The notes beneath the pieces were generated by a model. It was not told the DNA's origin and made no database searches. It worked only from the letters and a program-made list of their open reading frames with translations. DNA of 64,000 nt, taken from Podarcis pityusensis (lineage: Eukaryota). The stretch lies in the NCBI GenBank assembly GCA_964106645.2, contig OZ067053.1. One strand, written 5' to 3'. This document shows, piece by piece, positions 4,900 to 63,434 of this stretch. Both the position numbers and the translations under genes were made by a program. Each line of letters begins with the position of its first letter. Positions within the stretch are counted from its first letter, which is position 1.

Positions 4900-5409
4900 G
4901 TCAGGATGAGGCCCGATGTGAAGCGGGAGCATTTCATTCCTTTTGAACATATCGTCTCATTTCTTACTGTGGATTATTTCATTAGACATCGCCTGCGTGT
5001 CACCTCCCAAAACATACAGGTTTCAGAAAAAAGAACATATTTTTTAAGGCGGAAGGCGGCATTTGAAATAAAAAATTATACAGGCAATTCTCATTTTGCA
5101 CGGGGGTTACGTTCTGGACGTAACCCCCGTGTCGGCAGAGCAAGCGTAAGCCCACTCTGTCTCTTTTCGTGTCCTTATGAGGTTTTTGCGCTACTTCTGG
5201 GTTCAGCGCTGTGCACATGTGCACAATTGTGCATCATTCAGACATGCCTAAACCAGTCATTGCCTGTATTTGTTTTGGTTCAGATCATGGAACCCTTTAC
5301 AATGATCGATAACACATCCTTTCCCTCTTAGAATGCTTTATTATTAAATCAGTAAATTTCATAGTTGCACCCTGTATTTCTTTATTGGCGATTATTACAA
5401 CTTAACCTT

Positions 5410-5660
5410 TGTGGGTTAAACCACAGAGCCTAGGACCTGCCAATCAGAAGGTTGGCGGTTCGAATCCCCGCGACGGGGTGAGCTCCCATTGCTCAGTCCC
5501 TGCTCCTGCCAACCTAGCAGTTCAAAAGCATGTCAAAGTGCAAGTAGATAAATAGCTACTGCTCCGGTGGGAAGGTAAACGGCCAATAAAGCGAGATGAG
5601 TGTCGCAACCCCAGAGTCGGTCACGACTGGACCTAATGGTCAGGGGTCCCTTTACCTTTA
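5410..5660 (+). mobile_element. Sauria SINE, internally deleted
   Basis: aaaccacagagcctagg...ggttcgaatccc...caggggtccctttacctt; shared with three other copies. Confidence 0.88.
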
Positions 5661-5666
5661 CTTATC

Positions 5667-5704
<38 letters not shown>
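5667..5704. repeat. (CT)n(AT)n microsatellite
   Basis: Seen directly. Confidence 0.9.
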
Positions 5705-7381: not shown

Positions 7382-7588
7382 ATGCCCTTGAGAATATGAT
7401 GGAGACCCAGCAGCGAGACTCCAGTGCCCCAGGGAGATTTCACGTTGGGAGTGCCGAGTCCATGCTGCACATCCGTTCTGCTGGGGGCTATGCGCCGCAG
7501 AGGGCCCTCATCAACCCCTTTGCCCCCTCCAGGATGCCCATGAAACTCACATCGAACCGGAGGCGCTGGATGCACACCTTCCCCGTGG
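7382..7588 (+). CDS. DEPDC5: DEPDC5 exon 7: [27 protein letters not shown]...[10 protein letters not shown]
   Basis: tttcag|...g|gtaagg; ORF 7396..7611. Confidence 0.95.
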
Positions 7589-7674
7589 GTAAGGAGACGG
7601 AAGGCTACTAGCCACTTATTGTGGCAGAATGGGTAAGGAGACGGAAGGCTACTAGCCACTTATTGTGGCAGAAT
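7587..7674 (+). repeat. Perfect 44-bp tandem duplication spanning a DEPDC5 donor site
   Basis: gggtaaggagacggaaggctactagccacttattgtggcagaat x2. Confidence 0.95.
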
Positions 7675-7882
7675 GATTATTTGGGACTGCAGCTTCCGCC
7701 GACTCTAGCCAGCATAGCCATGTTAGCTGAGGCTGATGGAAGTTTCAGCTCAGAACATCTGGAAGTTACTAGGCTTGGGGATGCTGGGCTGGATCAGGGT
7801 TTCCCAAACTTGGGTCTCGAGCTGTTTTTGAACTACAACTCCCATCATCCTTAGCTAGTGGTCAGGAATGATGGGAATTTTA

Positions 7883-8097
7883 CAGCGGTAGCTCGGGTTA
7901 CAGATGCTTCAGGTTACAGACTCTGCTAACCCAGAAATAGTACCTCGGGTTAAGAACTTTGCTTCAGGATGAGAACAGAAATCGTGCGGTGGCAGCGGGA
8001 GGCCCCATTAGCTAAAGTGGTGCTTCAGGTTAAGAACAGTTTCAGGTTAAGAACGGACCTCCAGAATGAATTAAGTTCTTAACCCGAGGTACCACTG
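7883..8097. mobile_element. Tc1/mariner-type MITE family A (TIR CAGTGGTACCTCGGGTTA, TA TSD)
   Basis: TA|cagcggtagctcgggtta...taacccgaggtaccactg|TA; inserted in a palindromic hAT-like MITE (about 7795-8127). Confidence 0.88.
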
Positions 8098-8230
8098 TAG
8101 TCCCAAAACAGCTGGAGACTGAGACCGTGGGTTAGATGAACTCTTTGCCTGGTCCAACAAGGTGCTTCTCATGTTTGGTTCAGGCTATTCATGTGAAAGA
8201 TTGCACCCCTTTGGCAAACTGCACATTTTT

Positions 8231-10055: not shown

Positions 10056-10565
10056 GTCGGTGAATTTCTACTCAATATTGATCCAGAGTAGATTCCAACG
10101 TATAGTTAGCAAAGTAAAAACTTAAAACACGTTGCCGGATTCCCAAGAAAATAGACCAGAGGCAATTAATATTTCATCCAGCAGAGCTTTACTGCTACTG
10201 AAGGCAAATGTGCATAATGGTCACAAACCAGAAATCCAGTTGCAGCAGACTTAACTTAAACTTAACAATAACTAATAATAAGACTAAAACCTTAACACTA
10301 AGCGTACTATATACAGAACACCACACCAGAAGGAAAGAGAGCTAGAAAAGACTGAGACCCAGGCCTCACTATTATAGTCAGCATGACCTTGACAGAAAGA
10401 TAACAGAACCAGTTTAAACCAGCTGTGCTCTGCTTCTCTGGAGGAATAACCCAAACATCATGAACCTTCTGCTTGTTTTTTTCACACAGACGCTCCCAGA
10501 AGCTTCCAGAACCCTCTTGAATTATTAGAATAGGAAAGATCAATACTCTCTGTACTAAGAAATGC
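10056..10565. repeat. Interspersed repeat copy 1 (solo-LTR-like)
   Basis: Collinear with 19608-20252 over about 480 bp; boundaries approximate. Confidence 0.7.
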
Positions 10566-12999: not shown

Positions 13000-13177
13000 N
13001 NNNNNNNNNNNNNNNNNNNNNNNNNNNNNNNNNNNNNNNNNNNNNNNNNNNNNNNNNNNNNNNNNNNNNNNNNNNNNNNNNNNNNNNNNNNNNNNNNNNN
13101 NNNNNNNNNNNNNNNNNNNNNNNNNNNNNNNNNNNNNNNNNNNNNNNNNNNNNNNNNNNNNNNNNNNNNNNNNNNNN
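13000..13177. other. Assembly gap (178 N)
   Basis: Run of N. Confidence 1.
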
Positions 13178-13872: not shown

Positions 13873-14453
13873 TCCCCCAATTTTTTTTTTATTCATTTTC
13901 TAACACAAATAAACAATACAAATGTGAAGATTTTTGTGGTAAAAGTAAGTGTGATAAAGAGATGCGGGTGGTGCTGTGGATTAAACCACAGAGCCTAGGA
14001 CTTGCCAATCAGAAGGTCGGCGGTTCGAATCCCCGCAATGGGGTGAGCTCCCGTTGCTCGGTCCCTGCTCCTGCCCACCTAGCAGTTCGAAAGCACGTCA
14101 AAGTGCAAGTAGATAAAGAGGTACCGCTCCAGCGGGAAGGTAAACGGCGTTTCCATGCGCTGCTCTGGTTCGCCAGAAGCGGATTAGTCATGCTGGCCAC
14201 ATGACCCGGAAGCTGTACGCTGGCTCCCTCGGCCATTAAAGCGAGATGAGCACCGCAACCCCAGAGTCAGTCACAACTGGACCTAATGGTCAGGGGTCCC
14301 TTTACCCTTTAAGTGTGATAAAAAAAATGGTTAAAAATTATGATATATGAAACTGCTAAAGATGAGGTAAAATGAAAATCAGACGGGGGGACTTGGGGAA
14401 GCTCACCTAACAATGTTTAGAAAAAATAAGGATAAGACAAGAATTTGTTTGTA
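13873..14453 (-). mobile_element. LINE 3' insertion with apparent 5' inversion, hosting a Sauria SINE
   Basis: 16-bp TSD tgcccaatcctctttt at 13857-13872 and 14454-14469. Confidence 0.7.
13959..14309 (+). mobile_element. Sauria SINE, full length, 13-bp TSD taagtgtgataaa
   Basis: TSD at 13946-13958 and 14310-14322. Confidence 0.9.
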
Positions 14454-17474: not shown

Positions 17475-17942
17475 TAGTGGTACCTCGGGTTACAGACGCC
17501 AGTGTGGTGTAGTGGTTAAGAGCGGTAGACTCGTAATCTGGTGAACCGGGTTCGATTCCCCGCTCCTCCACATGCAGCTGCTGGGTGACCTTGGGCTAGT
17601 CACACTTCTCTGAAGTCTCTCAGCCCCACTCACCTCACAGAGTGTTTGTTGTGGGGGAGGAAGGGAAAGGAGAATGTTAGCCGCTTTGAGACTCCTTAGG
17701 GTAGGGATAAAGCGGGATATCAAATCCAAACTCTTCTCTTCTTCAGGTTACAGACTCCGCTAACCCAGAAATGGTACCTCGGGTTAAGAGCTTTGCTTCA
17801 GAATGAGAACAGAAATTGTGCTCTGGTGGTGCGGTGGCAGTGGGAGGCCCCATTAGCTAAAGTGGTACTTCAGGTTAAGAACAGTTTCAGGTTAAGAATG
17901 GACCTCCAGAACGAATTAAGTTCTTAACCCGAGGTACCACTG
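17475..17942. mobile_element. MITE family A interrupted by a tRNA-derived SINE
   Basis: TIRs at both ends; SINE at about 17498-17741. Confidence 0.88.
17498..17741 (+). mobile_element. tRNA-derived SINE (A box tggtgtagtgg, B box ggttcgattcc; ctctt tail)
   Basis: Pol III boxes plus a body shared with MIR-like squamate SINEs; splits MITE A. Confidence 0.8.
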
Positions 17943-18015
17943 TATTGTCCAAAGACACACGCACATTATGATTTCCATGTGTTTCTCCACCCCACCCCCC
18001 TTGGCTTCCCCCCAG

Positions 18016-19607: not shown

Positions 19608-20252
19608 TGTCATGAATTCTACTCATATTGATCCAGAGCAAATTCCAGCATATAATTAGCAGAGTAAAATCTAAAACACGTTGCTGGATTCCCAAAGGCA
19701 TAGACTAGAGGCAATTAATATTCCATCCAGCAGACCTTTACTGCTACTGGAAGGCAAATGAGCATAACGGTCACAAATCCAATACATTCAGGATTAGCAC
19801 TGTTCATAAGAAATCCAGTTGCAGCAGGCTTGACTTAACAGTAACTTATAATAAGACTAAAACCTTAACACTAAGCATACTATATACAGAACATGACACC
19901 AGAAGGAAAGAGAGATAGAAAAGAGTGAAACCTAGACTCCTTCTGGCCTTATTATTATAGTCAGCATGACCTTGACTGAAGAGATAACAGAACCAGTTTA
20001 AGCCAGCTGTACTCAGCTTCTCTGAAGGAATAACCCAAACATCATGAACCTTCTGCTTGTTTCTAGGCAGAATAGGAACTTACGTGTCAGCTAGAAACTT
20101 CCAGCTTGCACCTGTTTGTATCACGCAGAGAAGCTTCCAGAGCCCTCTTGAATTAATTAGAATAGGAAAGATCTCTCCACATATAGGAAAGATCTCTCCA
20201 CATCAGATCAATAATTTCTGAACCAGAGCAACCGACGTGACTTTGTGCAACA
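19608..20252. repeat. Interspersed repeat copy 2 (solo-LTR-like, TG...CA), with a 21-bp tandem duplication at 20162-20203
   Basis: Same orientation as copy 1; boundaries approximate. Confidence 0.7.
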
Positions 20253-30214: not shown

Positions 30215-30431
30215 GTGAGATGATGGCTGCAGGTGGTATGGGGAGAATTTAGCCCTTGCGGCTGTCAGAAACGCCACAGAGTTCATGATGTGTGCATAAG
30301 AGGAAGAGAGGGTTTAAACCAGGCACTGTTAAGCAGGCACCTTTCAGATGCTGGTTGGGGGCAGTAGCCCAGAACATCTCAAGGGCAGCAGGATCATTGT
30401 AGGGCTGGGTAATCTAAATCTAATTGCAATA

Positions 30432-30646
30432 CAGTGGTACCTTGGATTAAGAATTTAATTCCTTCTACAGGTCTGTTCTTAACCTGAAACTGTTCTTTAC
30501 CTGAGGTACCACTTTAGCTAATGGGGCCTCCCGCTGCCGCCATGAGATTTCTGTTCTCATCCTGAAGCAAAGTTCTTAACCCGAGGTACTATTTCTGGGT
30601 TAGCGGAGTCTGTAACCTGAAGCGTATGTAACCCAAGGTGCCACTG
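30432..30646. mobile_element. MITE family A
   Basis: TA|cagtggtacc...ggtgccactg|TA. Confidence 0.88.
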
Positions 30647-31281
30647 TATACTACTTCAACAAGTTTCCAGAGTGGGGCTGAGAAGCTGGAAGTTTAGATG
30701 GTCAAATACATCCTGTGGCCTCACTTTTCAAGACCACCAACAAATAGAGATAAGAATTAATCTCCGATTCGGGCAGAACGTGAAATATGACTTAACCAAA
30801 CTGTTCATCTTGCCACCATATAATATTGGGTGTAGTCCATCTCCAATGTTCTGATTCCCGCCCCCCAATAAAAATTGCATTAAATGGAGGGGGTAGAAAT
30901 GTAGGGTTGGAATGGTACCCACAAGGGTCCTTTAGTCCAATTGGCTGCGATGCAGGAATTACAGCTAAAAAATGGCTGACAGATGGCCATCCAACCTTCA
31001 TCTGAAAACCCCCAGCGAAGGAGAGCCTACCTTGTTCTGGGGGGTCCAGTTCACTGTTGGCAAAGGCTGGTTAAAACAGCTGCCCCTAAAACCAGCAACC
31101 CCCGCTGAGCATACATAGGAAGCTGCCTTATGTACTGAACCAGGCCCATTGCTGAGACCCTTCTGTATTGTATACTCAGAGATAAGTCCTGTTCAGCAAA
31201 GGTCCCTTGTGCCTTTCATTAGAAGCTTCCTCCTTGTAGTTCCCCCACTCTTAACGGCTTCCTGCTGTTCTGGTTCCCTGA

Positions 31282-37343: not shown

Positions 37344-37796
37344 AACACACAGTTCTCCTCCCATTGTTGGGGTGGCGTATTCATTGGCTCTCGCTGCTTG
37401 CATGTGGCTGCTGGCAGGCAGCAAAACAGAGCTGCAAATGGTTGGATCCAGCAACTAGATGATACAGTAGAAGCAGGAAAAGCACATTAAAGGGGAGTGG
37501 AAATAGCACCTCTTTAGGAACCTGGGTTTTACTGTTGCCTGGCGTGCAAACTCCTCACTTATCTATCTGACATCATTCATTGGCTAAAAACTGACTCAGG
37601 AGCAGCCAGGTTTGTTCATTTCACAGAAATTGCTTAGATGATTACCTACACTTTTTGCTTCATAACTGTTTAGCAGAGCTAGAGACTCTCTTCTTTTTTA
37701 AAAATGAGGGCTGACCACCCCCATTCCAGAGGGGAGGCGAGGACCAGTGGAGAGAAATCAAAGCATTGGACCTGGGCTAAAAATAATACAGTGGTA

Positions 37797-38146
37797 AAGA
37801 TCAAGGGACCCCTGACCATTAGGTCCAGTCATGACCGAGACTGGGGTTGTGGCGCTTATCTCGCTTTATTGGCCGAGGGAGCCGGCATACAGCTTCCGGG
37901 TCATGTGGCCAGCATGACTAAGCTGCTTCTGGCGAACCAGAGCAGCGCACGGAAACGCCGGTTACCTTTCTGCCGGAGTGGTATCTATTTATCTACTTGC
38001 ACTTTGACGTTCTTTTGAACTGCTAGGTTGGCAGGAGCTGGGACTGAGCAACAGGAGCTAAGCCCGTCGCAGGGATTCGAACTGCCAACCTTCTGATCGG
38101 CAAGTCCTAGGCTCTGTGGTTTAACCCACAGCGCCACCCGCATCCC
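37797..38146 (-). mobile_element. Sauria SINE, 12-bp TSD aatacagtggta
   Basis: Reverse complement of the other copies; TSD at 37785-37796 and 38151-38162. Confidence 0.9.
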
Positions 38147-38154
38147 TTACAATA

Positions 38155-38396
38155 CAGTGGTACCTCGGGTTAAGTACTTAATTAGTTCTGGAGGTCTGTT
38201 CTTAACCTGAAACTGTTCTTAACCTGAAGCACCACTTTAGCTAATGGGGCCTCCTGCTGCCGCCGCGCCGCCGGAGCACAATTTCTGTTCTCATCCTGAA
38301 GCAAAGTTCTTAACCTGAAGCACTATTTTTGGGTTAGCAGAGTCTGTAACCTGAAGCTTAAGTAACCTGAAGTGTATGTAACCCGAGGTACCACTG
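38155..38396. mobile_element. MITE family A
   Basis: TIRs cagtggtacctcgggtta, TA TSD. Confidence 0.9.
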
Positions 38397-39067
38397 TAAT
38401 AGAAAATATCTAAGGATAAGAGCTATTTGACAATGGAGAAGCCTGTCTCAGAAGGTGATGGATGGGTTATTCCTTAGCTGGTGGAGGCATTTAAGTAGAG
38501 GCTGGTTGGCCATTTGTCATTGTTGCTATGGCTGGATCCTGTATTATAAGACCCTGCACTGAGCAAAAAATTGGATTGGGGACCTTTCCAACATGATTCC
38601 TTGAAGCTAGATAAGCAAAACTGGAGGAGAGCGAGCGCATCTCATCTTTCTGCATCAGTGCATGTCCAAAAATTGAGTAGATCCATTTCCTCACATTCCC
38701 AAAACTACCTGGGACTGTCAGCAATTATGCATGAGTGATGATGGAGCTGCATTCTCACATCACCAAGCTCAATCCTTGCCTGACTTGTGTTACTCAGCGC
38801 TTTCCTTCAAAGTGGGTGGTTGCCATGCTGGGATGTGTGGCTGGCTTCCAAGAAGCTTCTGCTCAGAAAGGTGTGTGCAGAGAGACTGAATTTCTCTCTC
38901 TTATTTATTGCTTTTAATAAATCCCTTTTGCCAGGTGGGGAATCGGTTCACTTTCTCATGAGGTTGAAGGTTTGGAGGAGAGAGCCTTTCTGCAGGCTCC
39001 CTCTCCACAGACAAAGGTGCTTCAAAACCACAAAAAGTGCTCCAGCCCCCATGTAGCTTTCAAAATA

Positions 39068-39548
39068 CAGTGGTACCTCGGGTTAAGTACAGTGGTGCCC
39101 CGCAAGACGAATGCCTCGCAAGACGAAAAACTCGCTAGACGAAAGGGTTTTTCTGTTTTGCGTTGCTTCGCTAGACGAATTTCCCTATGGGCTTGCTTCA
39201 CAAGACAAAAACGTCTTGCGCTTTTTTTTTAAAGCCGCTTGAAGAGGCGCAGTTGCGACGGACCGTGCTTCGCAAGACGAAAAACATCGCAAGACGAAAA
39301 GGCTCGCGGAACGAATTATTTTCGTCTTGCGAGGCACCACTGTACTTAATTCGTTCCGGAGGTCCGTTCTTAACCTGAAACTGTTCTTAACCTGAAGCAA
39401 CACTTTAGCTAATGGGGCCTCCTGCTGCTGCCGCGCTGCCGGAGCCCTATTTCTGTTCTTACCCTGAAGCAAAGTTCTTAACCTGAAGCACTATTTCTGG
39501 GTTAGCAGAGTGTGTAACCTGAAGCGTATGTAACCCGAGGTACCACTG
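39068..39548. mobile_element. MITE family A with nested MITE family B
   Basis: TIRs at both ends; B inserted at an internal TA. Confidence 0.9.
39090..39342. mobile_element. Tc1/mariner-type MITE family B (TIR CAGTGGTGCC(C/T)CGCAAGACGAA)
   Basis: TA TSD at 39088-89 and 39343-44; repeated cgcaagacgaa motifs. Confidence 0.88.
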
Positions 39549-40052
39549 TATAACTGGGCTACTCAGAGAGATGTGGTTTGCTCTCCAGTTGATGAAGATT
39601 ACATTTATAGCTCACCTTTTCCTCCAGGTAGCTCAGGGTGGTAGACATGGTTCTCCAACTTCCCATTTTATCCTCACACAACAACCCTGGGAGGTAAGCT
39701 AGGCTAAGAGTGAGTGTCTGGCCCAAGATCAAACACTGAGCTACACGGCTGAGTGGGGTTTCGAACCCTTGTCTCCCAGTTCACAGGTCACCAACTAGCT
39801 CTGTCTAGTTGACATCTGCTTTATATACCGTTTGACTGCAGAAAACCACAAAGTGGTACTATGCACACACAGGAAACGCTGGGCTGCATGGGATGTGTTG
39901 GCAATGCCCCCCCATTCATTTATTATATATATATTATTATATATTGCTCTCATGCATTTATAAGCATTTTGCGGGGGGGGGTGTAGTCAGATAAATAACT
40001 TCATTGTTGTGGCTTAAGTGGGGCAGTCCACTGATCATGGGGATACACAATA

Positions 40053-40272
40053 CAGTGGTACCTTGGGTTAAGTACTTAATTCATTCCGGAGGTCCGTTCT
40101 TAACCTGAAACTGTTCTTAACCTGAAGCACCACTTTAAGCTAATGGGGCCTCCTGCTGCTGCCGCGAGCACGATTTCTGTTCTCATCCTGAAGCAAAGCT
40201 CTTAACCCGAGGTAATATTTCTGGGTCAGCGGAGTCTGTAACCTGAAGCGTATGTAACCCGAGGTACCACTG
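40053..40272. mobile_element. MITE family A
   Basis: TIRs plus TA TSD. Confidence 0.88.
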
Positions 40273-40485
40273 TATAGGGAATCCCCATTTATTTTGCGGT
40301 TCAGGGAGTATTATAAGCAGCTGCAGTAGGAGGAGAGGAAAGAGCATGAATAACAGCTGTGAGTGGAGAAGCCCTTTTCCCCAACCCTTTGAAACACCTG
40401 GGAAACTCCACGAACATGCTGCAGCTGGAACTGGGGGCAGCTGAATGGGACACAGCTGTGGGCCGCTTGAGAAAATACCATCCAC

Positions 40486-43800: not shown

Positions 43801-46793
43801 CTCTTAGGGTAACTTACCGGAGGCCAAATGTAGGGGGAGGAAAGAATGCAAACGTTACTTTTCTACTAGTTTAGACACAGACACACCCACACCTTTCTCC
43901 AGCTTTGGATCCCGAGATCTGCAGATGAAGAGCGCTGTGCAAATGTAATAAAAAATAAAAATAAAATCCAGGCACACGAGAGTCCACGGTCACCTCCCAG
44001 CCAGGCAAAAGCACTCAAGGGGGTGAAGCAAGGCTGGGATTGGACTTGGGATCTTGCACCTGGGTCTGGTTGGCAGTTTGTGGGGTCCTAGCAAAAAAAA
44101 CCAACACCCCAAAGTTGATCCAACAAGCCTGAATCCTGCCCCGCCCTGCTGGACTGGCGCAACTCATTTTCTGCAGTGTGTTGGGTGGGAGGAAGGAGGC
44201 TTGCGCCACTCAGCCAGATGGTGGTGGGGCTGCTCCTTCTCGAAAGGGCTCTCTGTCCATGTTCTACCTGACGGCACTCTTCTTCTTCGTCTTGGAATGT
44301 GGCCCTCTCAGCGGCCATTAGCAGAGCAGGAATGCTTTTAAGGACATCAATAATGAATGTGCTACCTCTGTGCACTCTGGGCTGCTGCTTTAGTGTAGCT
44401 CTGGCATCTTTTTGCCACATTGGCTGGTGGAAAACGAGGAAAGTTGGCTGTGCTGGGTAGCTTAGGGCAGTTGCCTCCCACGCTGGGGGCTCGCAGGAAG
44501 GGCCACTCCCTATGTCTGGATCACGAAGAACAGGGAGGTAGGTAGGTGGCAAGGGAGCCCGCTGTCAGTGCCACGTTTCCTTGGGGTAACAGCAGCACCC
44601 ACATGGCACGCAGCCCAGGTGAATCTGGTGGATCACACAGATCCAGCCCCTCCAGGGGTTCAGAGCCCACCAACTTCACAAGGCGGTTGCCATCTTGCAA
44701 AGTGGCTCGTAAGTCAGGCAACGAGGGGCGGCATTTCTCGAGTTTTAAAAGAACAAAGCTTGAGGCTGTTGTGAGTGCTAAGCTACGGGCCCGCTGTACA
44801 AGCTCGTGGGGACGGGTTATCTGTGGAAGGGGTGCCCGTAAGATAGCATAGGATATGAGAAAAGGGGGAGCAGATTTCATCACGCAGGGTGTCGTTTAAA
44901 CTCTGGAATTTGGTCATTTGAACATGCTTGCATACTTACCTTCCCCATTTTCTCATCTGTTTTTCCTAGGAAGTGAAAAGAAAAGGGCGGCGATGGAGGG
45001 GAGATCTTCCTTTTTAATAGGCCTTCCATTGATCCCTTCCTGCCTCCCCTTGTGCTGGATCCGAAACGTACTATGTGCTGCAGTTGCGAAGACCCACATT
45101 CTCCATCCGTTGCATCTGTGGAAAACAGTGCCAGGGAACACTTTTCAGGTGGTTCATAGTCTAAACAGAACCACTTTCGACATTGGGGTCTGCTAAGGAC
45201 TCCAAGATTTCTTGTAACTATTTTGCAGAGTTTGTTTGCAGAGGAAGGGTTTGATAAGGCCGTTTGATAAGCTGTCAAGTTTCAGCTCTCATTGATGGGC
45301 ATCTGCTCAGCTGCCTTCAGAGGTTCCACCTGGACAGAGGTGTATTCCAAGCCTCACAGGAGGAGAACAAGACCAACATACATTGCTTTCCTTAAAGAAT
45401 CTTGGGAACTGTAGGTTCCCTATTGTAGCTGTGTGGGTAAACTACAGTTCCCAGGATTCCCTGGGGGAAATAATGTGATTTCAGTGTATGGTGTGCCCAG
45501 CAGTTAGCATGCCCCAAGCCACTCTGCTCTCTTTCCTGTTGTGGAACTTCTCCTGTGAGCTGAAATAATGGAAATGGTGTCTCTTTGGAGGCAAGAGAAA
45601 GGGAGGGGCATTTGCCACATGCCAGAGACCATAGAAGTGTAAGATTGTTATATGGCCTTTGCAGTCATTTTATCAAATTGTTTACTTTTTAAGCAGGATT
45701 CCAGATCATGAGTCCATTGAGGGTTTTATTTGCTTAACTCAAATGTGAGGCCCTCCAGATGTTCTGGGCTACATCTCCGATCATCCTGGATCGCTGGCCT
45801 TGCTGCTTTGGGCTGGTGGGACACCAACATCTGGAGGGCCAGCAGTTTCAACTTAACTGTTTCTCTTTTAATATATTTTTTTGTAACTTTCAGTTATATA
45901 CATTTCAATAGTTTTAGTAATTTAAATGTTTCAAGACTCGACTTCCTCGTCTTTCTGTGGTCCCTCCGGTAATTTTCACCATCTTAAATGTTTCTCAATG
46001 GGATATTTGCCTCCTGCGTGGACCTTCTGTTATAAAGGAATAATTACGAATAAAATTTATTTGAAAATGGCTGCCTCTCTTTGCATGGGTGGTATCGTGG
46101 TTGCTGCTGTTGGTTGGGAACTGAGCCTGGGTGTCTTTTGCACCAAACGCTGGGTTTTTTTGCCCTTTCCCTTCCCTTAATTTTTTAAAACTTTGCTAGG
46201 ACTAGGCTTGGATGCCTTGTAAAATATATTGCTGATGACACACACACACACACACACCTTAATTTGCCCAGAGATGCCTACACATAGAAATTAGTCAATG
46301 CAAATTTTAATGTGAAGGTGATTTTTAAAAATTGCCCTCCTTTCAAACCTATAATTGGAGACACAGAGAGACTTCATGCAAATTGTCTTAAGGACATATG
46401 TAGCAGGGAAAACATGAATGGAACAGTATTCAACCTGCTTAAAAAAAATTTTAGGGGGTGCCATTTTAATGGAAACCTAATTCTCATTTCCCCAACAGAG
46501 GTCCTTTGAAATTTGTACTCTGGATTTAGGTCTCCAACAACAGTGTGTATAAAAGTTATATGTTAGAGGAAATGACATACAAAAAATGCATTTTATTACA
46601 GCAGATTATTTGCAAGAACAAAAAAGTATACAGTATTAGGCAACATGCCCCCTGAAATGCTGACAAATTTTTGTGAGGACTTGAAAATGGTAATTGCAAA
46701 CTATTTTGCAGTGTATTTATCCAAAATACACTGCAATGTGTACACTGTATGCATACAGGCAACAATGCATGCCTGTATGTGATTCCCCTAATA

Positions 46794-47035
46794 CAGTGGT
46801 ACCTTGGGTTACAGATGCTTCAGGTTACAGAAGCTTCAAGTTACAGACTTCGCTAACCCAGAAATAGTGCTTCAGGTTAAGAACTTTGCTTCAGGATAAG
46901 AACAGAAATCGTGCTCTGGGGGCGCAGCGGCAGGAGGAGGCCCCATTAGCTAAAGTGGTGCTTCAGGTTAAGAACAGTTTCAGGTTAAGAACGGACCTCC
47001 GGAACGAATTAGGTACTTAACCCGAGGTACCACTG
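46794..47035. mobile_element. MITE family A
   Basis: TIRs plus TA TSD. Confidence 0.88.
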
Positions 47036-47761
47036 TATATGAATTGTTTTAGTGGAAATTGTGAATTTGAGGATTTGAACAAAAATTATAAACTGATGTA
47101 GAGGGTTGGGAAAATGGGAAACAGAGGAAAAAACCCCCAAAAGGGGCTGATTATTCTCCTTCCTCCTTAAACCATCATCTTCTAGCAAAAAAAGAACTGG
47201 GGGCGGAGAACAGCCCTCCCCAGAGACAACCCCTATGATGACGATATATAAGAACGTGCAGACTTAGTCCCACCAGAGAGCTGATGTTGCACACATAGTC
47301 CTGCTCCTGCTCTGCGGATAGGCTGGTCTGCCTCCTTTGCCTTTAGCAACCGGAGACAAATATATCCATCTTTTCTCCCTTCCTCCTGAACCATGGCAAC
47401 AGATGGGGGTGACTCTTCTCCTGGCTCAGGCTGCAGCCCCGACGTCTGAGTGCCAGGGAGAAGGAGGAATGGGCACTTAGAGACAAGCTGTGCATTAATA
47501 AGTCATGCTTTCCCGGCAAATGAAAGGAGAAAAAAATCAAGTGTGCAAGCCAGGCGGAGGCAAGTTGGAGGCTCGGAACTCACTTCACTCAGGATCATGG
47601 GGGAACATTGAGCCCAATATCTGCCTCCCAACCTGCTGCCCTTAAATGTCACAAACACCCTTTCACGTTTCCTCATGTCCTCAAGACGTTTTGGACTCTA
47701 GGCCCCATCAGGCTGGGCAGGTGGGAGTCCTAGTTCAAAATAGCTGAAAGGCAAAGCTTGT

Positions 47762-48101
47762 GGCACTGTGGGTTAAACCACAGAGCCTAGGACTTGCCGA
47801 TCAGAAGGTCGGCGGTTCGAATCCCCGCGACGGGGTGAGCTCCCGTTGCTCGGTCCCAGCTCCTGCCCACCTAGCAGTTTGAAAGCACATCAAAGTGCAA
47901 GTAGATAAATAGGTACCACTCCGGCGGGAAGGTAAACGGCGTTTCTGTGTGCTGCTCTGGTTCGCCAGAAGCGGCTTAGTCATGCTGGCCACATGACCCG
48001 GAAGCTGTACGCCGGCTCCCTTGGCCAATAAAGCGAGATGAGCGCTGCAACCCCAGAGTCGGTCGCGACTGGACCTAATGGTCAGGGGTCCCTTTACCTT
48101 T
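47762..48101 (+). mobile_element. Sauria SINE, TSD aaagcttgt
   Basis: TSD at 47753-47761 and 48102-48110. Confidence 0.9.
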
Positions 48102-49070
48102 AAAGCTTGTTTACCCTCTAAAAGGCTCTTGCCACCTTTGCAAGGAAGGGCTTCTCTCTGCAGAAGAGAACAGACAATGTCCTGTGAAAGGCACTCCCGA
48201 AAAAGCCCACCTCCCAGCAAACTTAGAAGAGAACATTTCAAATCCTACGCTTCTTTCAGCGAGCTCTTCCCGCCGCAATTTCACACTCGCAACAACAACC
48301 CTGCGAGGTAGGTCAGGCTGAGACCACTGAGCATCACGACCGAGGAAGAGATTTTTTGAGGAGGTGTTAGGGAGGTCAGTCTCCAGATCTACCAACCCTC
48401 CTCGTGGGACGCCTCCCTCCTCCTCCGCCCTGCCTCCCTCCGCAATGCCCGCCCACCCCTTTTGCAATGCAGCACGGCTACCGCGCATGCTCCGGTCTCC
48501 CTCTCCCCGCCCCGCGCACTCCCGCGTCCAGCGCCGCGGAGCTATTTATAGCCGATGACGTCAGCTAGAAATAGAACGCCGGGGCCAGCCGCGGCTCAGG
48601 CGCGTGACTGATGGGCTGACGCACGGGCACGCGCCCTCCGCAACCCCTCCCTTCCCTTGCGGTCTTCTTGGCTCCGCCCACTTCGCCCACTTTTTTTACT
48701 ATAAGGGGAATGCCTCGTCAAGCGTGCGCATGCGCAGCTTTTTTTTTGCTTTTTTTAATATATAATATCGCAGCGAGGAATCCAACTTGCCCTCCTTTCC
48801 CTTGAGCGGCGGCGCTTTCCTCTCTGACGCATGCGCACAGTGTCATGCAGTGAGCGTGTGTATGTATGTAGGTGGGTGAGTCTCTGTCGGGCGCTGGCCG
48901 GTGTGTGGAGCGCGCACGCGCGAGAGCGAGGGAGTAGACGTTTGAAGCTGCGCGTGCGCGAAGCAGCCAGTCGGTCCAGTCAGTCACAGAGTGCGCGCGC
49001 TCTCTCGCCTGAGGTAAAAAAGAGGCGAAGGAGGGAGAGCCGTTGCTGCTACTGCTGCTGCTTCTGAGGC

Positions 49071-49094: not shown

Positions 49095-49219
49095 TCAGTC
49101 TCGCTCTGTCTTTGGCCGGCCCTGAAAGGAGCTTCGCCTCGGAAGGGCGCGCACAGCCCCAGCCCAGAGACCCCACCGCCACCTCGAGCCTCCGCCTCAG
49201 CCCCCGGACAACGACGACG

Positions 49220-49306
49220 ATGAGCGACCGCGAGCAGCTGCTGCAGCGAGCCCGCCTGGCCGAGCAGGCGGAGCGATACGACGACATGGCTTCGGCCATG
49301 AAAGCG
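49220..49306 (+). CDS. YWHAH: 14-3-3 protein eta, exon 1: [29 protein letters not shown]
   Basis: ATG at 49220, gcg|gtgagt donor; eta-type N-terminus. Confidence 0.97.
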
Positions 49307-55300: not shown

Positions 55301-55381
55301 AACTTGTACATATGGTATGGTTTGGAGGATGGTATATTTGGCCCCCAAAACTTGTCTTAATATCTCTATGTGCATTTGCAG

Positions 55382-56038
55382 GTGACTGAGCTGAATGAGC
55401 CCCTCTCAAATGAAGACAGGAACCTGCTGTCTGTAGCATACAAGAATGTAGTTGGTGCCAGGCGATCTTCCTGGCGAGTCATCAGCAGCATAGAGCAGAA
55501 AACCATGGCTGATGGGAATGAGAAGAAGCTGGAAAAGGTTAAAGCATACAGGGAGAAGATTGAAAAGGAGTTGGAGACAGTGTGCAATGATGTTTTGGCC
55601 CTGCTAGACAAGTTCTTGATCAAGAACTGCAGTGACATTCAATATGAGAGCAAGGTCTTCTACCTGAAAATGAAAGGTGATTACTACCGCTATTTGGCAG
55701 AAGTCGCTGCAGGTGAGAAGAAGAACAGCGTTGTGGAAGCATCAGAGGCTGCCTACAAAGAAGCCTTTGAAATCAGCAAAGAGCACATGCAGCCCACGCA
55801 CCCAATCAGGCTGGGGCTGGCACTCAACTTCTCCGTCTTCTACTATGAAATCCAGAATGCCCCTGAGCAGGCCTGCCTTCTAGCCAAACAAGCCTTTGAT
55901 GATGCCATTGCGGAGCTGGACACACTCAACGAAGATTCCTACAAGGACTCCACGCTTATCATGCAGCTCCTTCGAGACAACCTCACTCTCTGGACAAGTG
56001 ACCAGCAGGATGAGGAGGCAGGGGAAGGCAACAATTGA
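55382..56038 (+). CDS. YWHAH: 14-3-3 protein eta, exon 2: [32 protein letters not shown]...EEAGEGNN* (247 aa in total)
   Basis: ttgcag| acceptor; ORF 55370..56038; two-exon structure and DEPDC5 synteny fit YWHAH. Confidence 0.98.
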
Positions 56039-56717
56039 AGAGCTCCCCAGATCACGGCTTCCCATCAACCACCACCTCATCACCATCACCAATACTTCTT
56101 TGCCACGATCACACTATGTATTTAGTGCTAAGCATAAATGTATTGTTGGCACAGCTGTGAGGTCTGCCAGATGCTGCTTCAGATGGGGCTTCATGGGCAT
56201 TGCTGGACTAAATGGTGTATCAGCCCTGTTTATCATAGTGGCATATTGTGCAGGAAGAAACTTAAAATGAGGCATTTTAGTTTCATTTGATTCATATTAT
56301 ATGGGTTAATAAAAGAATGGAAATGATTTAGGAGAATTGATCGAAAATTGAATCTTTAAATTTTCTGCTTGGAGTGGATTATGTCAGTTCAGCAGTACAT
56401 CTTATACATGCAAAACATGGAAGTGGCTCTAAGCAGATGTGAACTGATTTTGTCCTGTTCATCAATTTTAAAATGTGAGGTTCTATAACAATCTGTGTTT
56501 CACTCTTTATGTGCACAGACTTGGTTTCAGGCAATGCATCTTGAGGTTTTGATTTTGATACTTGTAAGCTTTTTTTGCAGTTTTGAAGAATCATGATTTA
56601 TTTTTTGTAAATTCTTTGGCTGTTCAGTTGCCTGTGTATTCTGACAGCGCAGTGTCAATGTTAGCCGATGTTAAGATGGATGATGAGATGCCAGACTTCT
56701 AAATTAAGTGTTTTGGA

Positions 56718-56732
56718 ATTAAAGAAAATAAA
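56718..56732 (+). terminator. YWHAH polyadenylation signals ATTAAA / AATAAA
   Basis: About 680 nt after the stop, with GT-rich sequence downstream (56763-56780). Confidence 0.7.
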
Positions 56733-58272
56733 CTGCTGCTTGGGGGAGATAAGTTGTAAGAAGTTGTGTGTTTGTTTGAGAGTATTTAAACCCACCCACT
56801 AACCAAAGTTCTCAAGGTGACTTACAAAGTACAATGAAATAGGAATTTCTAGAGAGGGGCAAAGGTATATTCAGATTTACCTGCATTCCTCAGATGTTCC
56901 TTTTGCTGCTGCTGAATCTCTGGGCCACAGCATGTCTCAGAGGAAATCGCCATCACCTCAAAAAGGATGTTAGCCTCTCAAAAAACGGGCTTCTTAGTGA
57001 TTTGTCACAGCTTCTGCTGGCAGATACAAGATGGAGCAAATAAATTTACAAGATTCAGTTCTCAAATATTTACAAAATAATACTTCCAAGGTGTGTAATT
57101 ATAGGAATTAAATAAGCTCGTTAAACCTGCAAGCCCCTTCTCACTGATTAGCTGGGTTCCAGTAACAGGGAAATGCAGAGTGAATATTTTGCCCCAGTTG
57201 CAATGAATGCCTGACTGATTTTACTGCTTGTGGATGAGGCATGAGGTTTTCTTCTGTCCCATGGGTGCCATAGAACTCTGCTGGTATGCCAACCTTACAC
57301 AGCTTCACTTTAAAGTATGACCAATTGCATAAGATCCCACCCTTCTTTTTGACCTAGTTACCTACTGGAGTATCACATTCTGGAAGTTAAGGGCAGATTC
57401 CTGGAACATTCCTTTGTTGGGAACAAGAGATAATAATATAAAAGTCAGTTCCTTATCATACATGTCACACGTGCACTTCAGAGGTGGAGCTCTCCCAGGC
57501 TGCAGAGAGATCTGGCCCGACACAATTGGAGTATCATGAGGAGGCTAGCATAGCAACAAGAAATGAGAATCTGCCCAATGAGGCTGCCTGAAGACTGAGC
57601 AGACATAAATTCCTCCTCCTAGCCTGGGATATTCCTAGTGCCCTTCACATGAGGTCTTTCCTGAATTTAGTCCACCTCTACCATTGCCAAATCAGGTCCT
57701 ATTGGTGGTGGTGGGGACTCTTGATTTGAACTGGGGGTGGTTAGTTTTTTTAGAATGCTGCTCAAGTGTTTTAAGACATGAGACACAACCATTCTGCCAT
57801 AATAATTGTTATTATTATTATTTATTGAATTTATATACCACCCTATACCCGCAGGCCTCAGGGCAGTTCACAGAATAAAATCAGAATATAAAACCACTAA
57901 ATAAAACATAATAAAGATAAAAACAACAAGCCAATCCCCCCAGCACATTTTAAAAGGGCATAGGCTACAGAAGCCCAGTCCTTAATTTCTGACAAGTGGA
58001 TATGAAGGGGTTTGGGGCCATATGTTTAGAGTTGCAACAATTCCACTGCATGCTTAAAAAGGCCCCAATGCAGCCTGGCTGTGACAGGAGTTGTAGTCCA
58101 CAACATATTGAGGGGACCCAGTTGAGGAAGGCTTCCCAAAATTTTGGAAGCAAAGCTTTATTGGTTTAAAATGTTGAGTTACCATAAAAAGTCTGAGTCT
58201 GAAGCTCTGGGAACTGCATTCGGGCTGACTTGGGGAAAGGGCTGTAACTGTCATGGAGCACCTGCTCTGCAT

Positions 58273-58787
58273 GTTTGTTGTTGTTTAGTCGTTTAGTCGT
58301 GTCTGACTCTTCGTGACCCCATGGACCAGAGCACACCAGGCACTCCTGTCTTCCACTGCCTCCCGCAGTTTGGTCAAACTCATGCTAGTAGCTTCAAGAA
58401 CACTATCCAACCATCTCGTCCTCTGTCGTCCCCTTCTCCTTGTGCCCTCCATCTTTCCCAACATCAGGGTCTTTTCCAGGGAGTCTTCTCTTCTCATGAG
58501 GTAGCCAAAGTATTGGAGCCTCAGCTTCAGGATCTGTCCTTCCAGTGAGCACTCAGGGCTGATTTCATTAAGAATGGATAGATTTGATCATCTTGCAGTC
58601 CATGGGACACTCAAGAGTGTCCTGCACCACCATAATTCAAAAGCATCAATTCTTCAGCAACCAGCCTTCTTTATGGTCCAGCTCTCACTTCCATACATCA
58701 CTACTGGGAAAACCATAGCTTTAACTATAAGGACCTTTGTTGGCAAGGTGATATCTGTTTTTTAAGATGCTGTCTAGGTTTGTCATG
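58273..58787 (-). mobile_element. BovB (RTE) LINE 3' fragment
   Basis: RREDSLEKTLMLGKMEGTRRRGRQRTRWLD...HGVTKSQTRL; (CAA)n tail. Confidence 0.9.
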
Positions 58788-61700
58788 GTCCCACATCCAA
58801 TCTGCAGACAGGGCTGGGAGAGAACCCATCTGAAACTTGGGTGATCTGCTGCCAGTCAGTGTAGACAATACCGAAGTAAATGGACCAAATATAAAGCAGC
58901 TTCCTGTGTTCCTAAGACAATGCTGTTGCTCAATAAATAGGAAACCTGCTTTTCATTTTCCATCTCTTTGGCCTGAGCAGAGCAGGAATCAGGAGTGGAA
59001 TGTTAATTTCCTAGGAGAAAAACACTCTCTTTAATGAAGGAAAAGCAAAACCTTCAGCAGAGGTTATTGATTGGTGTTAAATCTTTTACAACGGCTTGTT
59101 AGCTAAAATAAGTCAATGCTATCTCACCCTATTTTGAGGTTATTTAAAAAAATCTCAAGTAGTAACATAATTTTTGGGGTGGGGGGGGATCTCTTTGCCA
59201 CAACCAGAAAGGTTTTCATTGTTGTCTAAAGACAGAAAGGCAGGTATGTCTGGGACTTATGGTACTATGGATAGTCATGGGACAAACCCACCTTTTGGTC
59301 AGAGTTCATTGCATGGCAAATCGTGTTCTTGATTTTAATGCTTCTGAATTCCACTCAGTGGCGAAGAAGCTTTCATAGAGTCATGTTGCTGGTACGTAAG
59401 GATGAATGAATGCCCATAACTTTTTTCATTAGTTTGATGAGCACCCTAGGCAGGCAGTTAAATATCCCTCCTAGAATGGGTGGGGTTATGTTTGCACCAT
59501 TCCTCTGGGCATTAATGCACAGTCTTCTGAGTTCTGGTCAATGTCTGCAGGAGAAGCACAAGCACATCTCAGCAACTGGTCCTGAAGATCCTTCCTGGCC
59601 CCTAGGAGTAGAGGCAAAGTGGAAGTGAGAGGGTTGGGGTTGAGCCAGGGGAGACCATGATGGCTAGGTTTGGAGAGACCAACAGATTCCAGAGTTTTCA
59701 TAGACCCCAGGCATGAACATCTGAGATAGATTGTGGTTTTGTTGGTGTGACCGAAAAATACTACCAGGCTAGTAACTACCCTGCTGGACTATGGAGGTTC
59801 TGGTGAGCGAGGAGTAGAAAGAACCTCTCGACTCTGCAGCTAAACACCTAATTCTAACAGTGCTCTTGCTTATGCGCTCAGCAGGTTCCCACAGGCTTCC
59901 AGTTGCCTCCCGGTGCTAATCAAAATTCATCCCTTAAGTTTTGCCCATTAATTTATGTATTAAACTTGTTTGGTATGTGAAGCATGTAATATATTCTTCT
60001 GGATGTTACTGAACCAGCTGTAGAGAAAACCAGCCTTCAGGGTGTGCTGCAAGTGAGCAAGTATTCCCAAACACAATTGCTTAGAGAACAACAACAACAA
60101 TTATGGAAATTACAGAGGGCAGGAAGAGGACATTTGTTTCAAAACCAAACAGGGCCGCACAATGATTAATTCTTCAGCCGGGCCAAGGGATATGTTAATT
60201 CCTCCTGGCAAAGATGCATGATGATCCTTCCCTCTTGATGCCTTACAAACCTTGTTTGTTAGCTCTTCTTCATCCTCCCTTTCCCTGTTTCCATCTCTCC
60301 CCCTCCCCTCCACATCAGTCCCTATTTACTTTAGAGTATATTTTCCCCTTGACTTTCATGGAGCATCTCCATGGCAACACCATGATGTCATTGCACTAGC
60401 AACTGTTGCCTTGGAGACAGCATGACGTGGTTGCACTGAGGAGTGTTGCTAGGGTTACGGAGCCAGCTTGCTGAGGAAGTAATGATATCCAACCCGTGTC
60501 CAGAGATGTTCCTGTTCCACGGGGGGGGGGGGGGAGGAGATGCACACAACAGAAATAAATCATTTGATGTAGGAGGGACCTGTCAAAAAATTTTAATTGC
60601 CTATTCTGTCTCCTTTAGACTGCTCACGCTATGTGTAGAGAAAGACTGGCTGTTCTAAAGCAGCAGCCATCCGCAGTGTTGGATAGCAGATTCTGTTTGA
60701 GATGAGATGGTTCCTTATGGTGGTGGCTTTCAAACCACCTTTCTTTGCCTAGTTTTTTCCGTCAAGGATGAATCTCAAACTGGATTGTGTACATCTCTAT
60801 TGGTGATAAATTAGATGCCAGCTGGACATTCTACATGGAACATTGTACACTCTGCTCCATGTTACAGAGGCCTGGCTGGTCTCAGCTGGAAGCTGGGCAT
60901 TGAATGCCACTGGTCCCATGCTATGGAACACTCTTCCAACAGAGATGCAGCAGTCATCCTCACTTTTAACTTTCAGGTGCCTCAAAGGCTATTTTAAAAG
61001 CCAACAGGCCTTTGCAGCAGTTTAATTTTTATTTTCAATTAGTCCATCACCTTAATGATTAACTGTATTTAATTGTTTTATAAAAGTGGTGCTTTATGTT
61101 TTAACATGGTACACTGCCCTGATATTATAGGATTTGGTGGTACGAAATAATTTTTATTTAAGCATCTTGGCGTCCTCCTGAACCCAAAATATTTACATCT
61201 TGCAATTCCCCAGTGACTCTGCTGGAGGCAGTAAACCCTTGCAGATGGAGGATGCTCTTGCCTGTGGAGTTTCTAAAAGAAGCAGCAAAGTGGTTTGCAA
61301 TCTTAAGATCTTTCCATTTCCCTGTGAAAGCATATCACTGCCTTGTCTTTGTTGGGGAGAGGGTGAGCTGCCGGCCAGTTTAATGCAACTTCTCTGTTTA
61401 AATCTTCTTTTTTCTTGCTTTAAACACTTCTAAACCATGCCAGGTAACATGTCATCATTCACCATGTCTTAAGAACTCCCAAAGAGCCTGGAGATAGGTG
61501 AAGCTGAATAGTGCGGCCATTCTGTCCTGAACTGTCTTGCTGTGGCCCAGATGCCACTTCTTCCAAGCCCACACAAACAAGCCCTCTCCCACTTGTGATT
61601 CTCACCAGCTGGTATTCAAAGGCATACTGCCTCTGAGGCAGAGGTAGAAAGTAGCCACTGTGGTTAGTAGCCAATGGCTAGTAGCCATTGATAGCTAAGA

Positions 61701-61828
61701 GCAATTGTGCTGGATAAGATCAGTGGCCCATCTAGTCCAGTATCCTGTTCTTACAGTGGCCAACCAGATGCACCCTCTCCTCCTGTGGCTTCCAGCAATT
61801 GGTACTGCCTCTGACCCGATGCCTTTCT

Positions 61829-61973
61829 TCCAATTGAACTGCAGAAGGATTAAAGATGATCTCTGCTCCATTCAGACTGTACATGAGCCAATTGAGGGGA
61901 TGATGTCGCCCATAGCAAATGTTTACGGCAATCTTCCCAAACTGAGTCTGGAACACCGGGTGCCCCATGTCCC
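61829..61973 (-). pseudogene. UPB1: UPB1 (beta-ureidopropionase) coding fragment [44 protein letters not shown], without splice sites
   Basis: ORF 61732..61968; near-identical to recalled UPB1 sequence around the catalytic Cys (NICYGRHHP); truncated at both ends and abutting an RTE LINE. Confidence 0.85.
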
Positions 61974-62677
61974 AGTGTTTGAGGACCAGGACATTTGCAG
62001 GGAAACCAAAATGCTTGTTTACAAAGCTATTGTCTTACCAACCTTACTGTATGCTTGTGAAACATGAACCACTTATAAACACCATTTCCTCCTCGAAAGA
62101 TTCCATCAACGGTGTCTTCGAAAAATGTTACACATCACCTGGGAAGACAGGCGAACTAATACCAGTGTACTGGAAGAAGCAAAGATCACCAGTGTTGAAG
62201 CAATGATTATTCAACATCAACTTCGTTGGTCTGGTCAGGTTGTGTGGATGCCTGATTATCGTCTTCCAAAGCAACTACTCTATCCCCAACTTAAAAATGG
62301 AAAGCGTAATGCTGGTGGTCAACAAAAGAGGTTTAAAGACTGTCTCAAGGCAAATTTTAAAAAATGTAGTATAAACACCAACAATTGGGAAACACTTGCC
62401 TGCAAGCACTCCAACTGCAGAACAGCCTTTACCAAAGGTGTCATGGGCTTTGAAGACACTCAAACTCAGGACGCAAGGAGGAAACGTGCTAAGAGGAAGG
62501 CACGCTTGGCAAATCTACACCATGGTCAACTCCCACCCAGAAACCAATGTCTCCACTGTGGAAGGATGTGTGGATCCAGAACTGGCCTCCACAGTCATTT
62601 ACGGACTCATTGTTAAAACTGTGTTTATGGAAGACAATCTTACTCAGCTACGAGTGATCGCCAAAGAAGAAGAAGAA
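61974..62677 (+). mobile_element. 5'-truncated RTE-clade LINE (RTE-1-like), ORF C-terminus with Cys/His finger and (GAA)n tail
   Basis: ...[14 protein letters not shown]...RWSGQVVWMPDYRLPKQLLY...CLHCGRMCGSRTGLHSHLRTHC; gaagaagaagaa tail. Confidence 0.9.
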
Positions 62678-63434
62678 AGGTATATTGTGTACACAGCTTC
62701 AGCTTATTACTAGGACAAAAGTGGAAATAGCTAGAGGTGGAGAGTCTACTGCTGTGGTAGACACCTCTCCACATTTGGTTCCATAAACTCGTCTCCAGTG
62801 CCCTCTACCGTAAAAAAGCATTATTCAGAATAGTTATTTGCACAACCTACTAAGAAAGATAACACAATAAAATTCAGCAAAGAGTATTGCATGAAAATTA
62901 TTTTTACACATTCTTATTAATGAAAACATAAGAGCGAAGAACTTATCTCTATCACTATTTACGAAACATGCAGAAACCTTCACCTACCACAAATGTGCAT
63001 CAACTAATTTATAAGAAAATCAATAGCTATTACTAATAATTGGCTATCTTGTGACAACCCAGAATTGTAAATGCAAACAGATATGACCAAAGGAAATAAC
63101 TTGGAAAGAGATAAGAGCAATAAAACTATAAATAAAAGCAAGAAAGGTGTTTTGCTCTAGGCTGTAGCCTGGTCAATTAAAAAAGAGCGATCAAACATGC
63201 TTGGAGGGCTCCGGTCTACTGACTGCTGTACAGGCTAAGATGTGGGGCATAAGAGGTTCAGCAGGGCCACAAGGGACACCTGAGATGCACCGGGGGGGGG
63301 TGTGCTTGGATGCAAACAAGTGCATATTTATTTAAATAAATCTCCCAGTTACTTTGGTTACAGTATTATTATTTTTTTAATTTTTACAAACAGCAATAAT
63401 GTTGTGGGTGGCTTCATATCTGTGGACTTGGAAC

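Follow-up and report, generated by a model that had tools for sequence, protein, structure and literature searches.

A UPB1 exon fragment flush with a truncated RTE LINE in Podarcis pityusensis: probably a later templated repair patch

Introduction

An exact copy of 133 bases from the catalytic-cysteine exon of UPB1 lies in antisense orientation, directly against the 5' end of a truncated RTE-type LINE, in the window analysed here (the whole stretch of 64,000 nucleotides from Podarcis pityusensis). We consider it probable, at roughly 0.6, that this piece is a DNA-templated repair patch, that is, a class 2 templated insertion, which was added later and replaced the 5' end of the LINE. Its likely template was the UPB1 gene, situated on the same chromosome, and we predict that the patch has no function. 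Co-insertion of the two parts is unlikely, because they differ in age, because a related organism (C) has the RTE junction with apparently one UPB1 copy, and because no target-site duplication (TSD) is present. The event itself is likely ordinary and of a known kind. The features on which the argument draws are as follows.

61841..61973, minus strand: part of the UPB1 catalytic-Cys exon, exact copy of 133 bases (exon nucleotides about 20-152; human residues 214-258), with no intron and no exon junction
61828..61836, minus strand: block fitting the UPB1 codons T-I-G-K (lacertid proteins read TIGKLS; exon bases 155-163)
61974..62677, plus strand: 5'-truncated RTE-type LINE, with the C-terminal part of the ORF, a short 3' UTR and four GAA units at 62666-62677
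62413..62422, plus strand: RTE stretch of 10 nt repeated at the left junction (61837-61846)
61818..61840, no strand assigned: scrambled left junction, which may derive from short local templates overlapping by 3-6 nt
61822..61830, minus strand: left arm of an inverted repeat, 9 nt, an inverted match to the end of the RTE tail
62672..62680, plus strand: right arm of the inverted repeat, 9 nt, made of the last 6 tail bases and the first 3 flank bases
61697..61817, minus strand: old copy of a high-copy repeat in the left flank, with an internal deletion and 75-90% identity to 6 other matches in the window
61587..61695, minus strand: second, adjacent remnant of the left-flank repeat, with contig joints to 61587-61589

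Identity and extent of the UPB1 piece

Read on the minus strand, positions 61971-61840 encode 44 residues without a stop. An earlier, sequence-only reading had assigned this antisense frame to UPB1, and the assignment held: the peptide matches human beta-ureidopropionase residues 214-259 (E 4e-25) as well as Pfam CN_hydrolase, and is identical at 44 of 44 positions to UPB1 of Lacerta agilis (P0002) and Zootoca vivipara (P0001), with 2-4 differences from the other 17 of the 19 UPB1 proteins listed. At the nucleotide level, 61841-61973 agrees at all 133 bases with organism C's parent exon contig, and likewise with the shared contig that both runs of organism A contain. The parent exon spans S208 to S264, with gene calls from relatives reading into the introns, and c.792 of UPB1 has been assigned to exon 7 (PMC7464968). 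Native splice sites are absent because the piece starts and ends inside the exon (19 nt inside it at the beginning and 5-7 nt inside it at the end); their absence, like that of any other UPB1 exon from the window, had been noticed from the letters and agrees with the exon limits and with tblastn. The same reading had recognized T-I-G codons ('ca att gga') after a short indel. This too is confirmed, as lacertid proteins continue T-I-G-K: the block reaches the first base of the K codon and is preceded by a 4-for-2 base replacement at 61840-61837. Its codons fit an origin from UPB1, and 61830-61837 matches 61888-61895 within the piece as well.

A tblastn search with full-length lacertid UPB1 returned one match in the 64-kb window, the piece itself, and no further UPB1 exons. 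A functional or decayed gene copy, the latter having been raised earlier as an alternative, is ruled out, since no other exons lie in order and the splice sites fall outside the piece. The tblastn match also ran on weakly over the left repeat, adding about 7 identities in 43 columns; this part was dismissed as spurious. No A tract that could represent a poly(A) tail was found in the sequence.

The frame containing the piece remains open for 100 codons (62034-61735, minus strand) through RTE antisense and left-repeat sequence, with a weak AG at 62014 in frame with the piece and a weak GT at 61839; we know of no host transcript on the minus strand there. The parent-derived span, 61828-61973, measures about 144-146 nt. 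This is near the length of the nucleosome core, about 147 nt, and a protected nucleosomal DNA fragment as donor can be offered as speculation.

Surroundings of the locus and probable position of the donor gene

The window opens in DEPDC5, for which 26 tblastn matches with the Lacerta protein (residues 361-1600) extend over 47-37002 on the plus strand; the last DEPDC5 exon in the window is 100% identical to Podarcis and Lacerta proteins. A 14-3-3 gene on the plus strand follows, with two coding exons (about 49140-49230, and 55361-56035 with a Pfam 14-3-3 match). Its first exon begins MSDRE, and by its neighbourhood the gene is YWHAH. The UPB1/RTE locus lies about 5.8 kb beyond the stop of this gene. 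Several AATAAA signals occur downstream of it at 56308-60554, and read-through from YWHAH, if any, would include a 133-nt perfect antisense to UPB1 mRNA.

Other repeats surround these genes. A second LINE 3' piece of another family, presumably BovB-like, lies at 58288-58755 on the minus strand; over 58755-58447 it shows 32% identity with P0122, an Anolis LINE protein, across 104 residues, and its 100-residue frame alone was unmatched. A dispersed family of about 350 nt, presumably Sauria SINE-like, has copies 88-93% alike at 5403-5702, 13968-14267, 37795-38148 and 47760-48102. Another of about 250 nt with inverted ends, presumably MITE-like, has copies about 90% alike at 7881-8100, 17741-17948, 30422-30650, 38147-38402, 39315-39553, 40045-40276 and 46787-47045. 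DEPDC5 introns contain a direct repeat of about 360-400 nt with 88-95% identity (10117-10478 and 19666-20062, 9.6 kb apart) and an assembly gap of 178 N at 13000-13177. A perfect 44-nt tandem duplication occupies 7586-7675, its first unit overlapping the end of the DEPDC5 exon match at 7381-7605.

The donor gene probably shares the chromosome of the locus. UPB1 and DEPDC5 proteins are assigned to contigs of the same size in 4/4 squamates listed with both (Lacerta agilis, with 40,056,199; Eublepharis; Ahaetulla; Rhineura), so that in all four of the squamates checkable the donor would lie on the same chromosome as the locus; the remaining squamates were listed for one of the two proteins only or without a length. 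On chicken chromosome 15, UPB1 is found in the 8-9 Mb interval, and YWHAH and DEPDC5 in the 9-10 Mb interval (PMC7402339). The Podarcis muralis genome measures roughly 1500 Mb (PMC13295347), of which the donor chromosome would account for about 40 Mb. A donor on the same small chromosome would be easier to reconcile with a nuclear template close by than with an mRNA free to diffuse.

The RTE element and the age of the two parts

The element at 61974-62677, which we take to be RTE by its general features, retains an ORF that ends at 62613 and is interrupted by a stop (62065-62067) and by a gap of one codon near 62085. It is 63-64% identical to the Anolis endonuclease and reverse transcriptase ORF (P0122). 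The truncated copy itself gave no Pfam match; its relatives, of 1063-1162 amino acids, carry PF03372 and PF00078 and thus display the ORF with apurinic-type endonuclease and reverse transcriptase that marks the RTE clade. PDB matches for the LINE were to L1 and R2 only. A further trait of the clade is the short 3' UTR ending in microsatellite-like repeats, which follows the stop after 62613 and closes with GAA x4; RTE-clade elements are described as bearing repeat tails (PMC13295347). The family is high-copy, and its contigs depart from the window at 62673-62677.

The two halves of the unit differ in age. In the RTE copy, at least 24 of 704 bases (3.4%) are private changes, one of them creating a stop, against 0 of 133 bases for the UPB1 piece compared with the parent exon of organism C (binomial P 0.010, Fisher P 0.015). 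The count of at least 24 combines 22 sites at which, among the matches listed, at least 75% of family depth differs with 2 changes obtained by protein parsimony. The corresponding amino-acid test, 0/44 vs 7/89, gives P 0.027 by the binomial and 0.055 by Fisher, the latter not significant. Part of the RTE changes may have been inherited from a rare source element. CpG decay failed as an age marker, only 1 of the 22 listed RTE changes being CpG-type. The sequence-only reading had judged the UPB1 piece recent, with which 0/133 agrees; its further proposal, that the piece arrived together with the RTE, is not supported, given at least 24/704 vs 0/133.

Junctions of the unit

The boundaries given earlier for the unit, including a join at 61973/61974 without spacer, hold in the window, and the join is unbridged among the contigs listed. 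It shows no microhomology and, judging from the codons, looks blunt. Equally correct was the description of a 9-bp inverted repeat (61822-61830 / 62672-62680) without a direct TSD. Among 5000 random 36-mers, 0.7% match the right end over 9 nt. The repeat was rejected as a transposon terminal repeat, because one arm is mostly LINE tail. No direct TSD adjoins the UPB1/RTE unit, the longest direct match between the end regions being 4 nt; a 10-nt direct match at 60784/62684, more than 1 kb from the junction, was taken as chance. By comparison, TSDs are reported for about 80% of RTE-clade Bov-B copies of one snake (PMC13295347).

The left junction can be tiled with short matches. Positions 61819-61826 match 61618-61625 in inverted orientation, 61822-61830 match the RTE tail, again inverted, 61828-61836 fit UPB1 T-I-G-K, and 61837-61846 match RTE 62413-62422 directly. 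Two non-overlapping matches of the junction to the RTE copy were found in 2 of 3943 random stretches, by a statistic defined post hoc, whereas single matches are common (5% of random 707-nt stretches for the 10-nt one, and 16% of random stretches for the other). Within 62413-62422, positions 62415 and 62418 are private bases of this RTE copy, and their presence in the junction would mean that the template was already mutated RTE DNA. These matches are suggestive of a left junction stitched from short local templates, the RTE copy among them; slippage on UPB1 could also yield the left-junction bases.

To the left of the junction lies the old repeat copy at 61697-61817, which we assume to be a CR1-type 3' end on the minus strand. 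Contigs of its family contain 26-37 extra letters after 61762-61771. The left-flank contig of organism C leaves the window sequence at 61692, with 26 letters unaligned, and the second repeat remnant may be rearranged relative to organism C near 61692-61697.

Contig evidence from organisms A, B and C

The stretch is partly present in 20 of the 24 sequencing runs listed, and contigs were compared from four of them: X1 and X2 (organism A, two studies), X3 (organism B) and X8 (organism C). The window itself may come from either of the A runs. The left junction is bridged in three of the four runs and in two organisms, A and B. X1 and X2 each have a 126-nt contig (61745-61870) that crosses it with 0 differences, and X3 a contig (61745-61973) with 3 differences in 229. 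Misassembly at this end, an earlier concern, can therefore be set aside. No bridge over 61973/61974 was found among the contigs listed from X1, X2, X3 and X8.

In organism A, the graph branches at 61841-61870. A second contig begins at 61841 and runs through 133 exact bases into 252 other letters; past 61973, the contigs of X1, X2 and X3 alike continue into 252-263 other letters. These are the parent's own upstream sequence, because the parent contig of organism C also ends 258 letters on. Branching and depth together imply one more contig in A (depth 21 and 24), representing the parent's other, downstream arm. The shared contig has depths of 24 and 31, where 26 and 35 are expected for 133 shared bases and 38 and 62 for 385. 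Branch and depth in A therefore indicate two copies of the exon segment, of which the copy leaves the parent near 61973. In X3, whose depth is about 6, the parent has no arm of its own. Joints of the kind linking 61760 with 61998 were set aside as other loci, being present in A and C alike.

Organism C differs from the window in 19 of 964 flanking bases. One of its contigs runs from the RTE tail at 62653 colinearly into the right flank, with 25 letters on the RTE side (27 in the A contigs) against a bar of 31 for bridging; the RTE therefore likely predates the A/C split. Its UPB1 exon forms one unbranched 2264-nt contig, and the bin depth of 10.4 equals that contig alone. Organism C thus likely has no second UPB1 exon copy, though assembly cleaning, filtering or secondary loss could mimic such an absence. 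A relative with the RTE and without the UPB1 piece had been named beforehand as evidence against a joint origin: the RTE 3' junction is indeed present in C, and the absence of the piece is likely rather than proven.

Alternative explanations

The sequence-only reading favoured a switch of the RTE reverse transcriptase to a UPB1 template, or a joining of its 5' end with one, during integration. A template-switch chimera of the U6/L1 type needs the orientation of the LINE, and so would a plain switch to mRNA; here UPB1 is on the minus strand and the RTE on the plus strand, and this form was rejected. The antisense layout therefore needs twin priming (PMC4476161), and the workable form of the idea is a single event in which the RTE underwent target-primed reverse transcription while the second DNA end was primed on UPB1 mRNA in trans, so that the 5'-truncated LINE became attached to an inverted stretch of mRNA sequence. 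The layout equals that of the inverted U5/L1 chimeras (PMC4476161), the join is flush without spacer, and 18 bp of GPD2 mRNA at an L1 5' end are on record (PMC1920257). The antisense piece does lie 5' of a truncated LINE, but the single TSD that encloses the known inverted chimeras is missing, and the two parts are equal neither in age (0/133 vs at least 24/704) nor in distribution, organism C having the RTE junction apparently without a second UPB1 copy. Moreover, junction bases match the already mutated sequence of the RTE copy, and the donor is on the same chromosome. Twin priming would further require that the piece underwent gene conversion or that the source element was divergent, together with loss or non-assembly in C, and we regard it as decidedly unlikely.

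A less distant alternative keeps the later event and takes UPB1 RNA as its template: a LINE reverse transcriptase or a repair polymerase, primed from the broken left end, would have stuttered at initiation, and end-joining would have attached the cDNA to the aged RTE. Such priming would begin where the left end has its short repeats, and experimental templated insertions are enriched in transcribed sequence and cut more than three-fold by RT inhibitors (PMC5110952). Both ends of the UPB1 piece fall within one exon, which would suit RNA; this does not separate a DNA from an RNA template, because a reader spots only those scraps that are coding, and a scrap of mRNA need not include a junction. 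On the other hand, the piece contains neither an exon-exon junction nor a poly(A) tail, the donor shares a chromosome of about 40 Mb in a genome of roughly 1500 Mb, and human UPB1 activity resides mainly in liver and kidney (PMC7464968). An RNA template is in our judgement unlikely, though worth keeping in mind. Very unlikely is a remnant of a larger inverted or dispersed duplication of the UPB1 region, trimmed on both sides by later deletions. The donor on the same chromosome would suit it, as would the departure of the left flank of C at 61692, by which 61693-61840 may be rearranged too; several events would, however, be needed within less than about 1% divergence, no other UPB1 exon lies in the window, and by depth only about 133 bases are common to the parent. 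It is barely credible that the piece and the left repeat at 61697-61817 together make up a same-strand template-switch chimera, with the piece as its 5' part and the RTE a bystander: the strands agree if the assumed CR1 orientation holds, and the layout would be classical, but the remnant is old (75-90% identity, internally deleted) and the piece has 0 changes.

An assembly error at the UPB1/RTE join is highly improbable, even though 61973/61974 is unbridged among the contigs listed and X1, X2 and X3 run into 252-263 other letters there. Those letters are parental, as the C contig ending 258 letters on indicates, depth places the departure of the copy near 61973, and there is support for the left junction as well as for the 3' junction of the RTE. 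Sequence belonging to this particular RTE copy is likewise missing among the listed contigs, as would be expected if cleaning had removed a path of low depth through a repeat of high copy number.

A probable later templated repair patch

The repair patch is the reading that we prefer. Counted in its favour are the age mismatch, organism C, the depth in organism A, the missing TSD, the shared chromosome of donor and locus, the junction matches and the size of the piece; counted against it are the bridge over 61973/61974 absent among the listed contigs, the post hoc nature of the junction statistic and the right join without microhomology. The RTE would have come first, inserting ahead of the split between A and C, and would then have aged. 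A later break close to its 5' end, in the lineage ancestral to A and B, may have been resected; the original 5' junction would have gone, and with it the left copy of the TSD, in a putative target deletion. The left 3' end would have served as primer for brief rounds of copying from neighbouring DNA (RTE tail, RTE interior) before switching to the UPB1 exon through a few bases of microhomology and copying about 144 nt, and the new strand would have been joined blunt to the RTE at 61974. Theta-type polymerase activity and replicative template switching are candidates for such synthesis.

If this is correct, the locus is a single dated germline templated insertion in a reptile, of a class described mainly in human cells. 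It also carries a caution, in that a gene scrap lying flush with a truncated LINE does not show co-insertion, which a comparison of the ages of the parts can test. Twin priming, if true, would mean that RTE machinery is able to capture host mRNA at the second DNA end.

Comparison with known systems

A literature search, with most subscription papers outside its reach, turned up nothing that deals with this locus or reports an mRNA/RTE chimera in inverted form. The inverted U5/U1/U2-L1 chimeras ascribed to twin priming (PMC4476161) resemble the unit in that a 3'-truncated cellular sequence lies in opposite orientation directly 5' of a 5'-truncated LINE. They differ in joining an snRNA to L1 or SVA within one TSD in a single event, whereas here an exon of an mRNA adjoins an RTE, without TSD and with parts of different age. 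In the accessible text of that snRNA survey, RTE and L2 chimeras are of the template-switch type only, and the inverted form is confined to L1 and SVA (PMC4476161). Non-classical, endonuclease-independent L1 insertions (PMC1920257) likewise lack a TSD, delete target sequence and contain 4-312 bp of extra non-LINE DNA, but the LINE pieces in the part of that report at hand are 3'-truncated and tailless, and the RTE copy keeps its 3' end and tail.

Closer likenesses are found among repair products. MMB-TI/MMBIR events (PMC8421209) comprise inverted short copies of nearby sequence, have multi-template junctions that can include a distant template, and turn up among germline variants. Within the accessible portion of that work, however, templates were sought within 100 bp, and the candidates here are 8-10 nt long and 200-850 bp away. 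Class 2 templated sequence insertions (PMC5110952) are known from human material, as far as the available text describes them, whereas this one is common to two lizard organisms, has a coding exon of the same chromosome as donor and one breakpoint in a LINE. They nevertheless share with the UPB1 piece several features: a short copy of a distant locus whose donor is intact, neither TSD nor poly(A), altered bases at the junction, heritability, and a size within the experimental range of 73-414 bp (median 191; PMC5110952).
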